From: a virus
Lineage: Duplodnaviria > Caudoviricetes
Virus record (IMG/VR): IMGVR_UViG_3300037311_000166
Coordinates: 1-42,911 of that record
Direction: 5' to 3' (one strand)
DNA: 42,911 nt
The position numbers and the translations under genes were made by a program. Positions 1 through 42,911 of this stretch are shown here, one piece after another (the stretch's first letter is position 1; every line of letters starts with the position of its first letter). Below the pieces are notes generated by a model. That model was not told where the DNA came from and ran no database searches. It was given only the letters and a program-made list of their open reading frames with translations.

Positions 1-127
1 TGAAGGATAAGGAGGACAAGATGAAGTCGTTAGAAACAATGAAGGATAAGGAGGACAAGATGAAGTCGTTAGAAACAATGAAGGATAAGGAGGACAAGAT
101 GAAGTCGTTAGAAACAATGAAGGATAA
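1..127 (+). repeat. 39-bp tandem repeat (3 full copies plus a partial), continuing from the right end of the contig
   Basis: Unit TGAAGGATAAGGAGGACAAGATGAAGTCGTTAGAAACAA at 1, 40 and 79, partial at 118; each unit contains GGAGG followed by an ATG. Confidence 0.97.
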
Positions 128-807: not shown

Positions 808-1388
808 TTATCACTTTAGAAAAAGATGAGATGCTTGGGAAACCATTTCCGGCTATTCCTCTAGGTTGGCAATTTATAGTTGGCGGTGCTGTCAGGTCTT
901 GGTTTTGCGGAGAAACACTGTCTGACATCGATTTAGCGTTTAACGACGAGAAACAGATGAAAGCCTATTCCGAAATTCTTGAAAAAGCAGGCTATAAAAA
1001 AGTTTTCTCTCACGAGAACGCTGATACATTTAAAAATGGCTCGGTCATTATCCAAACTTTAAAGAAATACTGGACAGATATAGATTCTATGTTTCGCTCT
1101 TTTGACTTTGACTTGTGCTGTTTTGCGATTGATTCACAGGGCTGTATTTTCACAACTAAAAAAGCAGTTTTATCTGTGTTAAGAAAAAGGCTGTCCGTCA
1201 ATACGATTCAATCTGGCTATGAATTAGATTCTTTGCGTAGGGCTTTTAAGTATTTTGAGAAAGGATACAAGCCTTGCTACGGTTGCTTGCATGACATCGC
1301 AAAATCTTTAGGCATGGACGAAGAGACTTTAAAAAAGCAAATTGAATTTTATGCAGACGGATCGGCCAGAGTGATTCGTTTTGATTAA
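804..1388 (+). CDS. Minimal nucleotidyltransferase (CCA-adding/poly(A) polymerase head-domain-like)
   Basis: IVGGAVRS...DIDL catalytic motif, FDFDLC (RDFT-like) motif, LRRAFKY motif. Confidence 0.75.
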   Translation: MIITLEKDEMLGKPFPAIPLGWQFIVGGAVRSWFCGETLSDIDLAFNDEKQMKAYSEILEKAGYKKVFSHENADTFKNGSVIIQTLKKYWTDIDSMFRSFDFDLCCFAIDSQGCIFTTKKAVLSVLRKRLSVNTIQSGYELDSLRRAFKYFEKGYKPCYGCLHDIAKSLGMDEETLKKQIEFYADGSARVIRFD

Positions 1389-1407
1389 AACAAGGAGGAC
1401 AAAATGA
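1386..1407 (+). repeat. 22-bp stop-RBS-start direct repeat, copy 2
   Basis: TAAAACAAGGAGGACAAAATGA. Confidence 0.9.
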
Positions 1408-1721
1408 GACAAATCACACAAGAAGAATTTGATGCGCTGCCAGTTGTTTATGATCGGAAACAATGTCCTGCATACACTGATTATTCGTTGATTACAGTAA
1501 TACCAGATAACTGCGTCTTTGGTGGAGGATGTCGTTTCGGTGAAGCGAGTAGCTTCGGTAATGCGTGTAGCTTCGGTAGGGAGTGTAGCTTTGGTAGAGG
1601 ATGCAGCTTCGGTGGATGGTGTCGCTTCGGTGAAAAATGTATTTTAGGTGGATCGTGTAGCATCGGTGGGTGGTGTCGCTTCGAGAAAGGATGTATCTTA
1701 GTTAGAGCAAGACTTTGCTGA
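1404..1721 (+). CDS. Hexapeptide-repeat (FGxxCx) beta-helix protein
   Basis: About 10 tandem FGxxC[SR]-type hexapeptides; strong RBS. Confidence 0.75.
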   Translation: MRQITQEEFDALPVVYDRKQCPAYTDYSLITVIPDNCVFGGGCRFGEASSFGNACSFGRECSFGRGCSFGGWCRFGEKCILGGSCSIGGWCRFEKGCILVRARLC

Positions 1722-1820
1722 ACTCAAGGAGCGGATCAAGCAGTTTGAATGAAGAATGATCAAGAGGGGCCTTTACTCAAAGTAGTTGCTAACAGCACCA
1801 AATGTGTGTATTGCTTGTTT

Positions 1821-2309
1821 ATGAAATGGAAATCAGTCAAAAATTACGAAGAAAGATATGAGGTTTCTGATTGTGGCATAATTAGAAAGGTTCCATGCAA
1901 GTCAGTAATTGGTCAATGGATTAACGATCAGGGATATTGTTTAGTTAGACTTTCAAACCCAAGAGCAGTGTTTCGTGTTCATCGATTAGTTGCAGATGCT
2001 TTTATCCCCAATCCAGATTTGTTGCCATGTGTCAACCACATCGACTGCGTTCGTCATAACAACCATGCTTGTAATTTAGAATGGTGTACTCAGTCGCAAA
2101 ACATTGAGCACTCGGATCGGCTTGGGCGGATGAAACGTGATTACTGGAAGGGGAAGAGGTCGCCAAATGCTAAATTATCAGATCAACAAGCGGACGAAAT
2201 AAGACAGATGTATGTGAAAGGAAACATATCTTGGGAAAAATTGGCCAAGATGTTTAAGACTAACAAACGAACGATTGGGCGAATTGTGCGAAGGGAAACA
2301 TATATTTAA
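1821..2309 (+). CDS. NUMOD4-HNH homing endonuclease
   Basis: WKSVKNYEERYEVSDCG (NUMOD4-like), VHRLVADAFIPN...VNHID...NNHACNLEWCT (HNH), C-terminal HTH; start re-called at MKWKS. Confidence 0.9.
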   Translation: MKWKSVKNYEERYEVSDCGIIRKVPCKSVIGQWINDQGYCLVRLSNPRAVFRVHRLVADAFIPNPDLLPCVNHIDCVRHNNHACNLEWCTQSQNIEHSDRLGRMKRDYWKGKRSPNAKLSDQQADEIRQMYVKGNISWEKLAKMFKTNKRTIGRIVRRETYI

Positions 2310-2310
2310 T

Positions 2311-2364
2311 TATGCCCCAACAAACTGGATGCCACTGCCTGATGCGCCAAAGGATGTGTTATGA
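2311..2364 (+). pseudogene. DUF551-like C-terminal remnant
   Basis: YAPTNWMPLPDAPKDVL* in the +1 frame directly after the HNH stop; resembles the DUF551 THWMPLPEPP motif. Confidence 0.45.
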
Positions 2365-2381
2365 ACCTTAAAGGAGGTATT

Positions 2382-2702
2382 GTGCATCTTAATCAAGGAA
2401 CAAGAAAAGCAAGAAAAAATCATCGATGTGAGCTTTGCGGCTTAAACATTCTTGCAGGAACAAAATATGAATTTCATAGTTGGGTTGACAGCGGTTCAGT
2501 TTATGAAATGAAATATCACCAGATATGCTTGGGTAAAATTTCACACTGGAAAAATGATGACTGGGTTGATTGGGATTTTGATTATGAATGGTTCAGAAGT
2601 GAATACAGTATAACTCAAGAACTGATTGATGGCGGCACATGGGTTCCCCGTGAAGCACTGGATTTTCAACAACTAGAAAGAAAAAAACATGAGCGAAATT
2701 AA
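2382..2702 (+). CDS. Small zinc-finger protein
   Basis: RKARKNHRCELCG...HQIC; AGGAGG before the GTG at 2382. Confidence 0.7.
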   Translation: MHLNQGTRKARKNHRCELCGLNILAGTKYEFHSWVDSGSVYEMKYHQICLGKISHWKNDDWVDWDFDYEWFRSEYSITQELIDGGTWVPREALDFQQLERKKHERN

Positions 2703-3045
2703 ACAATGGGATGTTGTCTCTTACGGACAAAACTTAGGAATAGTAACGCAAATATATTATGATGATTTGCTTAAAACAGAGTTGGCCTCAGTGTTTAGTC
2801 CAACAAATATACGGTTCATGGATTACAGAATCGATTCTTTAAAAAAAGAGCATGATAAAGTAGCCATAGCACCATCCATGGTCATGTCTCGCAGTAGCGC
2901 CACCGGAATTATACGCCGTGTTGTAATGACATCGCTATACACGTTTGAAGAATACCAGTTTGCGCGTGATAACTATTCGACAGAAGAAGTAACGTGGTCA
3001 TGGCCGTATAGTATTACAAGTCTGGTGATCGTTGATAAGACTTAA
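2689..3045 (+). CDS. Hypothetical protein
   Basis: 118-aa ORF overlapping the upstream stop within the operon. Confidence 0.7.
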   Translation: MSEIKQWDVVSYGQNLGIVTQIYYDDLLKTELASVFSPTNIRFMDYRIDSLKKEHDKVAIAPSMVMSRSSATGIIRRVVMTSLYTFEEYQFARDNYSTEEVTWSWPYSITSLVIVDKT

Positions 3046-3046
3046 C

Positions 3047-3063
3047 AACCCGCCCCGATGGGG
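3047..3063 (+). repeat. 17-bp direct repeat, left of the Tad1-like gene
   Basis: AACCCGCCCCGATGGGG; contains a CCCC-GAT-GGGG mini-hairpin. Confidence 0.85.
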
Positions 3064-3082
3064 CAAAACGAAAGGTAATAAT

Positions 3083-3403
3083 ATGTTACAAAAAGTAACA
3101 AGCACTTTTAAACACGACGACAATGGTAATCCAGCCGGCGGTAGTACTACTGGTACAGGGATTGATATTCAATGGCAAGACGGCCCTTTAGGCCCTCCAG
3201 AAAATAGACTTCCAGCTAATGGCGCATTTATAGAAGGAGTAATTCAAGCGGCAATTGAACGATTGGAGTTTTTCCAACATTCAAAATTCTCATGCCGCGA
3301 AAATGCAATTGCTTTAACGCATTTGGAGACAGCTTTATTGTGGCTACAGAAACGAACGATGGACAGAGAAATGCGCGGCGTTGAAGGGCAGCATAAGATT
3401 TAA
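3083..3403 (+). CDS. tad1: Tad1-like anti-Thoeris/anti-CBASS nucleotide-sponge protein
   Basis: IQWQDGP...NG...RLEFFQHSKFSCRENAIALTHLETALLWLQKRTMDREMRGVEG matches the Tad1 C-terminal signature as I recall it; start re-called after GAAAGGT. Confidence 0.75.
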   Translation: MLQKVTSTFKHDDNGNPAGGSTTGTGIDIQWQDGPLGPPENRLPANGAFIEGVIQAAIERLEFFQHSKFSCRENAIALTHLETALLWLQKRTMDREMRGVEGQHKI

Positions 3404-3404
3404 T

Positions 3405-3421
3405 AACCCGCCCCGATGGGG
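3405..3421 (+). repeat. 17-bp direct repeat, right of the Tad1-like gene
   Basis: AACCCGCCCCGATGGGG. Confidence 0.85.
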
Positions 3422-3441
3422 AATGAAGAAGGAGAAAGAAA

Positions 3442-3672
3442 ATGCAATTAACAGACAAGGCAAAGCAATTAATCAAAGAGTTGGAGAATGAGGAAGAAGA
3501 AATTAGTGAAGAGCTAGTCTCTATGCACCACTCCTTAGAAGATTTTTACTACAATCTTTTTGATGGAGGCTACATAAAACTTGAAGAATGGCTTGAAGGT
3601 GATGATCTCATCAAAGTAAAAAATGCTGTTGAGGTCCTCCTAAATTTCAAAAATAAATTGCCTGAGGTTTAA
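3442..3672 (+). CDS. Small acidic hypothetical protein
   Basis: RBS AAGGAG; Glu/Asp-rich, 76 aa. Confidence 0.8.
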   Translation: MQLTDKAKQLIKELENEEEEISEELVSMHHSLEDFYYNLFDGGYIKLEEWLEGDDLIKVKNAVEVLLNFKNKLPEV

Positions 3673-3683
3673 AACTTTTTTCT

Positions 3684-3744
3684 TCCCAGCCTGAACGTCC
3701 GCCTCACGCGGTGTAGTCTCTGACGAGAGACTCTAGGGCTGGGA
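3684..3744 (+). ncRNA. Putative three-way-junction RNA element
   Basis: TCCCAGCC/GGCTGGGA closes the hairpins CCGC/GCGG and AGTCTC/GAGACT. Confidence 0.45.
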
Positions 3745-3753
3745 CGATGAAAT

Positions 3754-3864
3754 CACGGGGCAGCGCGGACGGTGACGCGCAGGTGGGGCGCTACCTCCAT
3801 AAGCATCGCGACCTAGGAATCGTAAGAGTCGTGCAGGGAGCCGGTTCAATTCCGGCCCCCGTGA
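3754..3864 (+). ncRNA. tRNA-like RNA lacking a canonical anticodon arm and CCA
   Basis: Acceptor stem CACGGGG/CCCCGTG, D arm GCGC-GGACGGTGAC-GCGC, T arm GCCGG-TTCAATT-CCGGC; 59-nt atypical centre. Confidence 0.8.
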
Positions 3865-3944
3865 ATATAATGGAGATTTTATGACAGAAAAACATCACTG
3901 CCCGATGACATTACGTATGATAACAATACAAACAAGGAGCCAGC

Positions 3945-4166
3945 ATGATAACCAACTCACTGCGTAACATAATCAACCAAATCGATTGCTCGAAAGAGCC
4001 TAACGAGATCCTCAACGATAAATGCGAGCTTCGTAAAGCGATACTGCATAAAGTCATTGACGTGTTTGAAAAGGAAGGCCTGCCGCTTGAGCGTGTGCCT
4101 CCGCCTAAGCCTGATCCCGTAGACCATATTCACCCAGGATGGGCGATGATGTGGAGATCAAAATGA
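3945..4166 (+). CDS. Hypothetical protein
   Basis: RBS AAGGAG; 73 aa. Confidence 0.7.
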   Translation: MITNSLRNIINQIDCSKEPNEILNDKCELRKAILHKVIDVFEKEGLPLERVPPPKPDPVDHIHPGWAMMWRSK

Positions 4167-4366
4167 AAAAAATTGAGCGCTTGGATATTCTTGAGGAATT
4201 GGACAATCTCAAACGTATTATTGAAGAGAAGTCTATTAAAATTGAGGGTTTTGAATACGACACTTTAGAATTTATTCAGCTTATCCGCGATGTCATTGTA
4301 GCACAAAAAGAAATGTATTTTTCATTATTGCATCAGAGAGAAGGTAAAGATGTCACAACGCATTAA
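4163..4366 (+). CDS. Hypothetical protein
   Basis: GGAG plus ATG at 4163 coupled to the upstream stop. Confidence 0.7.
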   Translation: MKKIERLDILEELDNLKRIIEEKSIKIEGFEYDTLEFIQLIRDVIVAQKEMYFSLLHQREGKDVTTH

Positions 4367-4850
4367 GTCCGGAGCGTACTCAAGGAACGCTGGCGCTAGG
4401 TTTGAGCGAGAGTGTGCTAGCTGGGTAAGATCGATGGGGTTTGATTGTTATCGTTCAGCCCAGGTCAAGCAAAATAATAACGCTCACGATTTGACTTCCG
4501 ACACGTTTCCATGGGTCATTGAATGTAAGTGGCGTGCAAACTACAGCCTGCATCAAATATGGGATGATCTTTGTTTAACTGCTAGTCACTCCAGGGATCG
4601 TCCTCCCATGCTGCTTTGGAGGCACGCTTGCCGGTCAATGCTTGTATGCTTAAACATTGCTGGTCTAAAGCCAATACCAGAATTGCATGAATATGCGTTC
4701 CTTAAAGCTAAATCTGAGAGGGGCACTTTTTGGAATTTATTTGAGCCACCAGCATCAAAATTCTTTTATAAAGAACGCGCCATAATTGTTTTTGATTCTG
4801 ATTTTTTTTCTAAAATAATTGTAAAAAATTTGGATTTTTTAAAATCTTAG
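4350..4850 (+). CDS. PD-(D/E)xK Holliday junction resolvase-like nuclease
   Basis: SRNAGARFERECA...HDL...IECK motif. Confidence 0.75.
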   Translation: MSQRIKSGAYSRNAGARFERECASWVRSMGFDCYRSAQVKQNNNAHDLTSDTFPWVIECKWRANYSLHQIWDDLCLTASHSRDRPPMLLWRHACRSMLVCLNIAGLKPIPELHEYAFLKAKSERGTFWNLFEPPASKFFYKERAIIVFDSDFFSKIIVKNLDFLKS

Positions 4851-4865
4851 TTAAGAAAGTTTTAT

Positions 4866-5294
4866 ATGTCTGAAGGCAAAACAAAAAGACAGCAAAGATT
4901 GCTTGAGGAATATTTAAAAGAAAAACAAATAGAGAAACCCGAAGGGCTTGGCTTTGTAGATTTTTTTGAAAAGGTTGATGATGCAGATTGGCGCCCTCTT
5001 TCAATTGATCAAACCATGGCATTAACCATAAAAGATTTTTTAACAAACAGGCGTATCATGGGAAAAATTCAAGTTGAAACTCGGTATTTTTATTTCACAA
5101 CGTATGAGCAGGATAAGAAAAACTTGCAAATAAAATATCCTAACAACCCAGTCATTTGCCTGTCTCAAGTGTTGGGTAATTGGCTAAGCAAGCTTAATGA
5201 TCCCCTGACTTCAATCGATATTTTTGTTTTGGGAACAATGGGCGCAACGCTATCGGGCGTAAAAGAGGGAGTAGATTATGAACCATTCGCATAA
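4866..5294 (+). CDS. Hypothetical protein
   Basis: 142-aa ORF within the operon. Confidence 0.7.
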   Translation: MSEGKTKRQQRLLEEYLKEKQIEKPEGLGFVDFFEKVDDADWRPLSIDQTMALTIKDFLTNRRIMGKIQVETRYFYFTTYEQDKKNLQIKYPNNPVICLSQVLGNWLSKLNDPLTSIDIFVLGTMGATLSGVKEGVDYEPFA

Positions 5295-37146: not shown

Positions 37147-37196
37147 CCAAGTCCTGCCAAGTCCTGCCAAGTCCTGCCAAGTCCTGCCAAGTCTTG
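37147..37196 (+). repeat. 10-bp tandem repeat x5
   Basis: CCAAGTCCTG x4 plus CCAAGTCTTG; dispersed GCCAAGT at 37002, 37258 and 37714. Confidence 0.95.
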
Positions 37197-37457
37197 TCAC
37201 GCCCTTGATTGACCACAAAACTTTGACGCCAAATCCCGTCAAATTCCCACACGTTTTGCCAAGTCCTTGAAAAACAGAGAGAAAATTGAAAGGGCTTGGT
37301 GGGACGTGTCAAAATCTTGATAGTGCCCGATAGAATATGGTGGGAAATGTTGGGATGTTTGACGTTTTTTCAGCTCTTGTAATGTCGCATAACGATGAAA
37401 ATGGAATTTTGACGCTTTTTCGCGAAAATATTCAATCAGCGTTTTGGCAATATGTCC

Positions 37458-37473
37458 GGCAAAAACCGTGCCA
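37458..37473 (-). promoter_or_regulatory. Sigma54 -24/-12 motif
   Basis: TGGCACGGTTTTTGCC on the - strand. Confidence 0.7.
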
Positions 37474-37502
37474 GAATTGGAATTTTCTTTTTTTTGTCGC
37501 TT

Positions 37503-37518
37503 TGGCACGATTCTTGCA
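37503..37518 (+). promoter_or_regulatory. Sigma54 -24/-12 motif
   Basis: TGGCACGATTCTTGCA. Confidence 0.75.
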
Positions 37519-37601
37519 CGTGATTTTTGCCAAAAAGCATGACAAAAAATTGTCGGATGGAGGGAAAGAGTGATAGGGCGTGACGCTAAAACGGGTCTTG
37601 C

Positions 37602-37813
37602 TCGAGCTAAGTGCTTGTTTGATATTTTTTTTTTTTTTTTTTTTTTTTTAATTTTATGGTTCCGCAGCGACAAGCTCATAGGGGTGTCAAATATTTGACT
37701 ATAGGTAGCTATCGCCAAGTTTGGACCCCCTACCCCCCGCGTGTCCCCGCCAAAACCCCGAAAAGAAAAAAATAAAAAAAAAAAAAAAATATCAAACAAT
37801 AACTTACGCTCGA
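37602..37813. repeat. Large imperfect dyad with IHF-like sites and A/T tracts; candidate packaging/terminus site
   Basis: TCGAGC-TAAGTGCTTGTTTGATA-T25 ... A-tract-TATCAAACAATAACTTACGCTCGA, with nested inner symmetry. Confidence 0.75.
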
Positions 37814-38000: not shown

Positions 38001-38028
38001 TTGATAATATTAATTGATAAAATATAAT
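38001..38028 (+). promoter_or_regulatory. Early sigma70 promoter
   Basis: TTGATA-16nt-TATAAT with an upstream A-rich UP-like tract. Confidence 0.65.
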
Positions 38029-38074: not shown

Positions 38075-38200
38075 ATGGAAATCATAATTGAATATAAGAC
38101 ATCGGTAAACGTCATGGCTGGCTGGCGCTCAATATACGTTAAAGCCCTGGCCAAAAAAAGATTGTCAGCGTGTTTATGTGTGCAACCGGCGGGGGAATAA
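38075..38200 (+). CDS. 41-aa first early gene (not in the ORF track)
   Basis: AAGGA RBS; MEIIIEYKTSVNVMAGWRSIYVKALAKKRLSACLCVQPAGE. Confidence 0.5.
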   Translation: MEIIIEYKTSVNVMAGWRSIYVKALAKKRLSACLCVQPAGE

Positions 38201-38203
38201 ACA

Positions 38204-38476
38204 ATGCGCTTTTTCTATCTCACGATTGCCACCGGTCTGGCATTGACGGTTTTTGCATTGCTCCAGGTTGATAAATCAATCCCGAGCCAGCTTAAGGCCC
38301 GCCATGCCGCCAAACTTACCCTCTCGGATTGCCCCCCATCCCCTTTTCCCGAGGGTTGCACAACAGATGCTGAATGCTGTTCTTGGTGTCCGCAAGCCGC
38401 GCCAGGGCTTTGCGGCATGGATGAACCGAAGACTTTAAAATTCCGCCCCCGCCCTTGGTTTATGTTGGGCTGGTAA
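38204..38476 (+). CDS. Exported/membrane-anchored Cys-knot-like protein
   Basis: Hydrophobic N-terminus; C-x8-C-x5-CC-x2-C-x7-C. Confidence 0.65.
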   Translation: MRFFYLTIATGLALTVFALLQVDKSIPSQLKARHAAKLTLSDCPPSPFPEGCTTDAECCSWCPQAAPGLCGMDEPKTLKFRPRPWFMLGW

Positions 38477-38486
38477 GTGCATGATA

Positions 38487-38550
38487 AGCCGAAACGGGCC
38501 GCAAGGCCTGTCTTCCCGCAACCCCGCGCGGGAACTGATGAGGCTAGGGG
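38487..38550 (+). ncRNA. Type II hammerhead ribozyme
   Basis: AGCC-GAAA-CGGGCC(GCAA)GGCCTG-TC^-TTCCCGC(AACCCCGC)GCGGGAA-CTGATGA-GGCT-AGGGG. Confidence 0.93.
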
Positions 38551-38575
38551 ATAACAACTAAACAAGGAGCAAAAC

Positions 38576-38998
38576 ATGGAACTTTTAATCTCTGAAAATA
38601 TCGAAAATTTGGATCAATTTCTATCCCGTCCCGAAAACAAGAAACCCGATGGATCAAAAAAATTCGAGGTGCCACCAAACCTGCCGACCGGGCATGGTTT
38701 TTTAGGTCTCGTGTACAATCCCTCAACCAAAGCCGCGTATAGCGGAAAACAAGTCCAGTTCTTGAGCCTGCTTTGCCAAGCCGCCGGCCTATGCGGACAG
38801 TTTGCTGGATACCGCCAATGGAATGAGCTTGGGCGTGTGGTTAAGAAGGGTCAAAAAGCAGTCCGGATCTTCGTTCCAAAATTCAAAAAATCAGAGGATG
38901 GGCAAGAAGCAGTCTATTTTCGGATGGTAACCGTGTTTGCTTTTGAGCAAACAGAGCCGCTTCCTGAAGCCTCAGAAGGTGAGGTTGCCAATGGATGA
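38576..38998 (+). CDS. ArdC-like N-terminal ssDNA-binding (antirestriction) domain protein
   Basis: NPSTKAAYSG...FAGYRQWNELGRVVKKGQKA...VFAFEQT. Confidence 0.8.
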   Translation: MELLISENIENLDQFLSRPENKKPDGSKKFEVPPNLPTGHGFLGLVYNPSTKAAYSGKQVQFLSLLCQAAGLCGQFAGYRQWNELGRVVKKGQKAVRIFVPKFKKSEDGQEAVYFRMVTVFAFEQTEPLPEASEGEVANG

Positions 38999-39521
38999 CT
39001 CTCACCCGTACCATTTCACTTGCGAAATAAAAGGCCTGCCAAAGTTCTATCTTCGGCTTAGCGGGTATGCGTCAGCATATGAGACGTTTAACAAATACAA
39101 GGCGCATCCGCGCATTGATCATCTAAAAGACGGGATTGAGCGAATGCGGAACCGAGTCAATGTGCAAAAAACGCTGGAAATTGAATTGAGCGAAGAAGTT
39201 ACAAGCAACCGCTCACAATTTAAATTTTTCTGCGTGTCGACCGTCGACGGTGACGGATGGTGGGCGGAAAAAATAACAAAGCGTTGGGGCTCAACGCCTA
39301 GCCACTGGATTCGTACCCGAGGCGCAACAGACCATGCCGAGTTACTCTTTAATCGAGAATGGCTTGCGACTTTTACCAAAATCTATGAGGCATACATTGA
39401 TAGGGCCAAAGTAAAATTTTACTTTGCCGATGTCATGAACCTCAAGCGACATTTGGAAAAATCAGTCACAGAATGTTTGGAATATATCGACACAACGAAG
39501 CAATTTTTAGCAAAATTATAG
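38991..39521 (+). CDS. Hypothetical protein
   Basis: GAGG RBS; start re-called at MDDSHP. Confidence 0.7.
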   Translation: MDDSHPYHFTCEIKGLPKFYLRLSGYASAYETFNKYKAHPRIDHLKDGIERMRNRVNVQKTLEIELSEEVTSNRSQFKFFCVSTVDGDGWWAEKITKRWGSTPSHWIRTRGATDHAELLFNREWLATFTKIYEAYIDRAKVKFYFADVMNLKRHLEKSVTECLEYIDTTKQFLAKL

Positions 39522-39830: not shown

Positions 39831-39921
39831 CGAACGGGCCAGTCGGGATCCCACCGCCCTGGCCCAAAAGATTTTAAAAATTTTTATCGACAATTTTTAG
39901 CAAATAATATAAGGGAATTTT

Positions 39922-42595: not shown

Positions 42596-42805
42596 ATGAC
42601 TTACGGTTTTGAATCGCTAATCTGCACCGCCCCGAACGAATGCCAGAAGCTCGGCGAGATTGTCGTCTCGTGTGTGATGTCCAGCTGGCAATTTTGGCTT
42701 GCGATTGTCGGCGTGTCGCTTGTTATGTCGATACTAACGAGGCCGAGGGTTCGTGTGAATGTTAAAGGCGTTGGTAAGCAGGTGAGGATAAGGAGGACAA
42801 GATGA
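42596..42805 (+). CDS. Small membrane protein
   Basis: One TM helix followed by an Arg-rich tail. Confidence 0.65.
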   Translation: MTYGFESLICTAPNECQKLGEIVVSCVMSSWQFWLAIVGVSLVMSILTRPRVRVNVKGVGKQVRIRRTR

Positions 42806-42911
42806 AGTCGTTAGAAACAATGAAGGATAAGGAGGACAAGATGAAGTCGTTAGAAACAATGAAGGATAAGGAGGACAAGATGAAGTCGTTAGAAACAATG
42901 AAGGATAAGGA
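42783..42911 (+). repeat. 39-bp tandem array and terminal overlap with 1-91 (circular closure)
   Basis: 42821-42911 is identical to 1-91. Confidence 0.95.

Follow-up and report, generated by a model that had tools for sequence, protein, structure and literature searches.

Type II hammerhead ribozymes were described by Perreault et al. in 2011 (PMC3088659). The accessible text of that paper covers the pseudoknot of the class, its place between prophage genes, cases associated with ardA, and the hypothesis that these ribozymes take part in mRNA processing. It reports activity for 14 of 18 consensus hammerheads, and the prophage hammerheads flanking ardA were active both in vitro and in E. coli. 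The biological reason for the association of ribozymes with genes is described as not known in the available parts of two further papers (PMC6765202; PMC10085705). Here, a hammerhead located upstream of an ArdC-like gene in a phage was compared with these systems. Judged from its sequence, the element at 38487-38550 is confirmed as a real type II hammerhead; the class is large, and this member of it is ordinary.

The window, i.e., the whole stretch of DNA that was analysed, is the entire 42.9-kb record of a tailed phage. Its minus strand carries the genes for terminase, portal, capsid, and tail, and its plus strand the replication genes and small genes, including the promoter-like site, the ORFs, and the ribozyme described below. 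A sequencing run containing the phage is a freshwater metagenome and possibly its source; a Logan contig, possibly from the source sample, is identical to the window at every base. A second run contained small pieces of the phage only and left the ribozyme uncovered. The runs listed as containing the phage included no RNA dataset, which carries no weight for or against expression. In one sequencing run, the contig depth is 49.5 at 37164-37611 and about 31 elsewhere. This non-coding stretch lies between the packaging genes, on the side of the gene in the small-terminase position, and the early operon that opens the plus-strand block. The raised depth suggests that it is likely a terminal repeat and thus the physical end of the genome. 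An imperfect 68-nt inverted repeat at 37608-37806 adjoins this likely end; its arms are 63 nt apart and are based on an A-rich run and a run of 25 T, and a 10-nt tandem repeat is present at 37147-37193. Both ends of the window (1-127 and 42785-42911) lie inside one tandem repeat with a 39-nt unit. The label "direct terminal repeat" given to the record may therefore reflect a collapsed repeat of uncertain copy number. The CheckV completeness is 42%.

A sigma-70-like promoter (TTGATA-16-TATAAT, with an A-rich tract upstream) is predicted at 38001-38028. It matches the consensus at 11 of 12 positions, the best match in the region, and is the likely start of the early transcript. As this near-consensus site precedes the ribozyme, the latter likely belongs to the first early transcript. 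Two open reading frames lie in between, i.e., ORF1 (38075-38200, 41 aa, no family found in the family search) and ORF2 (38204-38476, 90 aa). The cut was previously proposed to separate the first two genes; with both ORFs located upstream of the ribozyme, the division would instead fall between the second and third genes. ORF2 had no Pfam or PHROG match, and a protein search returned only ORF2 itself. Its hydrophobic N-terminus is signal- or membrane-like and is followed by six cysteines (43, 52, 58, 59, 62, and 70) in the pattern C-x8-C-x5-CC-x2-C-x7-C, which is unusual in a phage early gene. We take this spacing to resemble that of a cystine knot. The ESM Atlas feature look-alikes are small cysteine-rich proteins, all scoring below 0.9, and serve as a lead only; the single-sequence model of the cysteine segment is too poor to use (pLDDT 62.6). 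Tandem stop codons are found at 38482-38487, directly 5' of the ribozyme and out of frame with ORF2. In most natural examples, the stop codon of the upstream gene is at this place, and the end of ORF2 may have shifted frame after the arrival of the cassette.

The earlier note had described a complete type II hammerhead, and sequence reading, a descriptor scan, and Rfam alignment recovered all of its core bases and stems at the same positions. Stem II is formed by AGCC (38487-38490) and GGCU (38542-38545) and is open-ended. The segment 38491-38512 contains the GAAA core (38491-38494), stem III, and the GUC triplet (38510-38512), which places the predicted cut after 38512. Stem III consists of C38495-G38510 and five further pairs closed by a GCAA tetraloop (38501-38504), thus 6 bp as previously noted, or 7 bp when A15.1-U16.1 is included. 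Stem I pairs 38513-38519 with 38528-38534 (7 bp), and its 8-nt loop carries CCCC at 38522-38525. According to the descriptor scan and folding, the whole segment 38513-38534 would form the hairpin with which the 3' product begins at its 5' end. The last segment, 38535-38550, holds the CUGAUGA core (38535-38541), the 3' strand of stem II, A38546, and the GGGG pseudoknot strand (38547-38550). The descriptor counted 7, 4, and 7 pairs in stems I, II, and III, respectively. The type II core is present throughout (C3 U4 G5 A6 N7 G8 A9, G12 A13 A14 A15, and U16 H17); loops close stems I and III, stem II is open, and the pairs adjacent to the core are intact. CCCC and GGGG are able to form the proposed loop I-tail pseudoknot of at least four pairs, as far as complementarity is concerned; the same register is found in 2 of 63 natural long-arm examples. 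The predicted cut site, the 63-nt leader, and a 3' product starting with a 5'-OH on a hairpin follow from the sequence and hammerhead chemistry.

The Rfam check suggested for this motif gave a mixed result. The full length of the Hammerhead_II model (RF02276) was aligned with an E-value of 6.4e-5 on 1.4 kb and 0.002 on the whole window, but at 34.6 bits the match is under the gathering score of 37, so a scan at the gathering threshold reports nothing. Only one of the eight hammerheads found by the descriptor in 60 ardC loci was recovered by such a scan; the cut-off thus misses many hammerheads. Both methods found this hammerhead as the sole one in the 43-kb genome. In dinucleotide shuffles, a match with all stems of at least 4 bp appeared in 5 of 100 sequences, and one with at least 18 bp in total in none of 100. 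Folded alone (38480-38560), the three stems form the minimum free energy structure with a stem II probability of 0.88. With a value of -0.06, the folding z-score of 38470-38580 does not stand out.

Type II hammerheads are abundant in viral DNA. A narrow pattern for the class would match about 1,400 IMG/VR stretches, as extrapolated from 6 of 64 parts scanned. From 134 IMG/VR loci, 141 distinct hammerheads passing the stem test were retained after removal of exact duplicates. Two arm lengths occur between the cut and the CUGA core, one of 17-19 nt, typically with a 3-nt loop (78 of 141), and a longer one of 21-26 nt, which is the pseudoknot type (63 of 141). A ribosome binding site (RBS) and an ORF of at least 40 aa follow 111 of the 141 hammerheads. 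The distance from the cut to the start codon has a median of 58 nt and is 39-75 nt in 97 of these 111 cases, compared to 63 nt in the phage studied here. A stop codon within 15 nt upstream of GAAA was found in 75 of 86 examples with enough upstream DNA, against 211 of 2580 random positions; the ORF2 stop lies 14 nt upstream. A loop I-tail pseudoknot of at least 4 bp can form in 45 of the 63 long-arm examples (tail-swap controls: mean 11.5, maximum 21), and 4 bp are found here. The genes downstream are varied, with any Pfam match in 8 of 111 (300-nt flanks only from locus L082 on). The hammerhead and its context are therefore canonical and known in kind, the layout having been known since 2011. 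One detail deviates from the sample. Compared to the pseudoknot-type hammerheads sampled, stem II plus spacer has one additional base, the base after GGC (tail position 4), which is A or G in 63 of 63 long-arm examples, being U here. No close relatives of the phage were found with the ArdC-N protein among viral and metagenome contigs or with the terminase among viral contigs. A pattern for the CCCC/GGGG pseudoknot geometry gave three matches, none with hammerhead stems, and protein searches with ArdC-N returned only that of the window.

The hammerhead occupies the 99-nt gap between ORF2 and the third gene, whose ATG (38576) is 63 nt after the predicted cut and is preceded by a Shine-Dalgarno-like AAGGAG (38564-38569). 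This gene (38576-38998) encodes a stand-alone ArdC-N domain protein of 140 aa, which matches PF08401 at residues 45-111 (E 2.9e-10, 40.8 bits against a cut-off of 22.6), phrog_7245, and, weakly at the sequence level, ArdC in PDB 6i89. Its single-sequence model is too poor to use (pLDDT 37.5). The C-terminal MPTase metalloprotease domain (PF18818) is absent from the ORF and from the whole genome at E ≤ 1. A split ArdC with the protease encoded by the next ORF (38991-39521), which overlaps the ardC-N stop by 8 nt, is of no known family, and likely belongs to the same 3' cleavage product, was ruled out since no MPTase match is present there or elsewhere. Of an "antirestriction" ArdC, the gene thus encodes the ArdC-N domain only. 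In plasmid R388, the protease activity of ArdC is dispensable (E229A), according to the accessible text of PMC7213743, and ArdC-N is presented in the available part of PMC5512222 as an ssDNA-binding domain of mobile elements. For these reasons, an antirestriction role is plausible for the lone ArdC-N, as judged by analogy. Further downstream, an exact 14-nt repeat is found at two gene junctions (39501-39514 and 39891-39904), each shortly past a TCGACA hexamer. These repeats and hexamers are possible internal promoters or operators.

The position of the ribozyme raises the question of a dedicated ardC control element, whose cleavage would switch on, boost, or time ArdC-N synthesis. From 131 viral ardC loci, 80 were taken, and 60 remained after discarding 3 seed contigs and 17 near-duplicates; the genes surveyed encode full-length ArdC and not a lone ArdC-N. 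Within 3 kb of ardC, eight hammerheads were found in 6 of the 60 loci, against none in 358,940 shuffled bases. They belong to types I, II, and III, and every one of them is on the coding strand. Five of the eight directly flank ardC, compared to about 17% of junctions (P 0.006, from a rough junction count with non-independent cases, two of the five being from one locus). This mild enrichment and the published ardA precedent (PMC3088659, in its accessible text) speak for such control. On the other hand, ArdC-N was present in only 6 of 99 hammerhead-carrying records (loci L001-L112, with L113-L134 left out), and a hammerhead lies directly upstream of ardC in 2 of 60 loci and directly downstream in 3 of 59, a distribution which argues against a switch. 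Unmasking of the RBS by cleavage was ruled out in the model, in which the predicted opening energy is 3.1 kcal/mol before and 4.5 kcal/mol after cleavage. Control of ardC is therefore regarded as quite improbable, and the specific link to this gene drawn in the earlier note did not survive, since none of the 111 downstream genes in the hammerhead sample is ArdC-N, 54 of the 60 ardC loci have no hammerhead, and the association of such ribozymes with ardA was already published.

Other ardC loci carry further ribozyme classes. Rfam added a twister in L147. It also added four pistols in L206, whose ardC locus (about 1330-4920) is punctuated by them and by one type III hammerhead. Among the 6 hammerhead-carrying records with ArdC-N, L140 has a valid hammerhead directly downstream of the ArdC-N gene; in L139, a core variant has the same place, and in L138, two hammerheads lie farther upstream. 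A degenerate hammerhead without stem I directly precedes ardC in L143 (reverse strand, about 1435-1495), and its core region doubles as the ardC RBS. No hammerhead was found in cultured-phage regions with weak ArdC-N matches (3 of 6 records examined). Overall, the association of ardC, an early gene, with ribozymes is modest, and ribozymes of any class may bracket it on either side, which fits punctuation rather than a dedicated switch.

It is well established that hammerhead cleavage leaves a 2',3'-cyclic phosphate and a 5'-OH. On balance, we consider it probable, with some reserve, that the element acts as a general processing cassette between cistrons, with the early transcript being cut after 38512, probably during ORF2 translation. 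The transcript would start near 38001-38028. After cutting, the stem III hairpin would terminate the upstream piece, which carries ORF1 and ORF2. The downstream piece, with ardC-N and the genes behind it, would start at the stem I hairpin and bear a 5'-OH there, so that the decay of the two pieces may be uncoupled. In a host with RNase E, 5'-end-dependent decay of the downstream piece would likely be slowed. Indeed, the accessible text of one preprint reports that a ribozyme-made 5'-OH slows end-dependent decay (bioRxiv 10.1101/2020.07.22.216051); for glmS, the available part of PMC6765202 describes cleavage leading to decay and not to stability. The full Rfam alignment, the intact core, and the class-typical geometry, with the stop 14 nt before GAAA and the start 63 nt after the cut, favour the cassette. 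Against it are the loss of stem II in the predicted native fold and the U after GGC, seen in none of the 63 long-arm examples. The fast cleavage previously expected from the tertiary contact is likewise not assured. Stem II plus spacer is one base longer than usual, and the RNA is predicted to misfold in its native context; as stated in the accessible text of PMC3088659, a tested ribozyme became less active when its stem II was extended by one pair.

This misfold was predicted with ViennaRNA. When at least 45 nt of upstream sequence are added, the last ORF2 codons (38446-38463) pair with stem II, G12/A13, and the GGGG tail (38455-38463 with 38484-38492, 38451-38453 with 38542-38544, and 38446-38449 with 38547-38550), and the stem II probability drops from 0.88 to 0.00. 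The active fold then lies above the ensemble by 7.8 kcal/mol with 60 nt and by 6.3 kcal/mol with 90 nt of upstream sequence, the pseudoknot energy being uncounted. As the naked full-length RNA is predicted to misfold, cutting would likely occur while ORF2 is translated; we read this as a side effect of the surrounding sequence and not as a switch that was selected for. A stronger version is that selection has shaped the end of ORF2 to tie up stem II, G12/A13, and the pseudoknot strand. In this version, the terminating ribosome melts the helix and licenses the cut, tying the release of the ardC-N message to ORF2 translation. With the ribosome footprint at the stop codon held unpaired, the gap indeed falls to 0.5-0.6 kcal/mol, and the local hairpin 38455-38492 (-14.5 kcal/mol) could form before the ribozyme is complete. 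The penalty induced by the upstream sequence is matched or exceeded by just 5 of 140 natural hammerheads. Yet the effect is borderline relative to chance and was noticed post hoc, as a gap of this size is reached by 21 of 400 synonymous recodings and by 17 of 400 shuffles, and 12 of 140 natural hammerheads have a total gap at least as large. Moreover, blocking 38444-38463 alone leaves a gap of 5.5 kcal/mol because other pairings take over. The folding model omits pseudoknot and tertiary energy, with the loop-tail duplex alone at -8.3 kcal/mol before loop penalty, and the searches for relatives gave none in which covariation could be looked for. A selected gate is thus unlikely for this locus. 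Translation gating as a property of the whole class was ruled out, given that natural hammerheads did not surpass versions with a shuffled upstream sequence (of n=140, 17 were above all of their 8 shuffles and 17 below, with about 16 expected each).

The predicted misfold could also mean that the cassette is largely silent, i.e., that it arrived with a gene module, still looks intact, and is mostly trapped. The atypical length of stem II plus spacer is consistent with this, 4 of 18 consensus hammerheads were inactive (PMC3088659, accessible text), and the stem I-less hammerhead in L143 indicates that such cassettes do decay. In contrast, the core is unchanged and 18 of 18 stem pairs and 4 pseudoknot pairs are intact in this phage, whereas drift would be expected to erode them, and the ribosome footprint lifts the predicted block; we hold silence to be rather unlikely. 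Hammerheads can also ligate, and cleavage followed by religation might yield circular or spliced RNA. With a single ribozyme in the genome, there is no second end for circularisation, and the accessible text of PMC3088659 reports that no such products were detected for tandem prophage hammerheads, which makes this outcome extremely improbable.

The processing cassette favoured here is one more example of an abundant known class. Being the sole ribozyme in a small genome, it offers a setting in which one core mutation would probe what intergenic phage hammerheads do. The only new detail is the rival hairpin predicted from the upstream codons, which a ribosome may have to open first. Given this predicted misfold, the RNA might remain uncut when long and naked and still be active in cells. 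RNA extraction can itself trigger ribozyme cleavage, as reported in a preprint (bioRxiv 10.1101/2024.07.19.604288). A selected, ribosome-opened gate, if true, would make this phage element a naturally conditional hammerhead. There is a small chance that the hammerhead is kept shut by the final codons of an early gene, which encodes a small and probably exported protein rich in cysteine, that the terminating ribosome opens it, and that the anti-defence message is freed only once the host translates phage RNA. A literature search covering few subscription journals returned no report of a natural ribosome-gated phage hammerhead.

Compared to described systems, the locus combines familiar parts. 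With the glmS ribozyme, it shares self-cleavage in a bacterial-type mRNA leader leaving a 5'-OH, which is predicted here. In contrast, glmS has a different fold, is ligand-gated, and triggers decay by cleavage (PMC6765202, available part), and no ligand site is evident in the phage hammerhead. The N-terminal ssDNA-binding domain, supported by Pfam and the weak PDB sequence match, is shared with ArdC of plasmid R388 (PMC7213743, accessible text; PDB 6i89). The phage protein of 140 aa has no metalloprotease domain, whereas in R388 the activity was inactivated (E229A) and the domain retained. Clustered prophage hammerheads flank single genes with at least two ribozymes per operon, whereas one match was found in this genome. 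As for the ardA hammerheads, which are flanking in Agrobacterium tumefaciens and upstream in Legionella (PMC3088659, accessible text), the common feature is a self-cleaving RNA class that lies, in phage-like surroundings, directly before a gene of an antirestriction family. The gene here encodes ArdC-N, an ssDNA-binding fold unrelated to ArdA, with one ribozyme only, on the upstream side. The closest likeness is to the type II hammerheads of RF02276. The phage element differs from them by its score below the gathering value, a stem II plus spacer one base longer, and a single copy instead of a cluster, and it shares their topology, invariant core, short open stem II, predicted loop I-3' tail pseudoknot, and phage intergenic setting.
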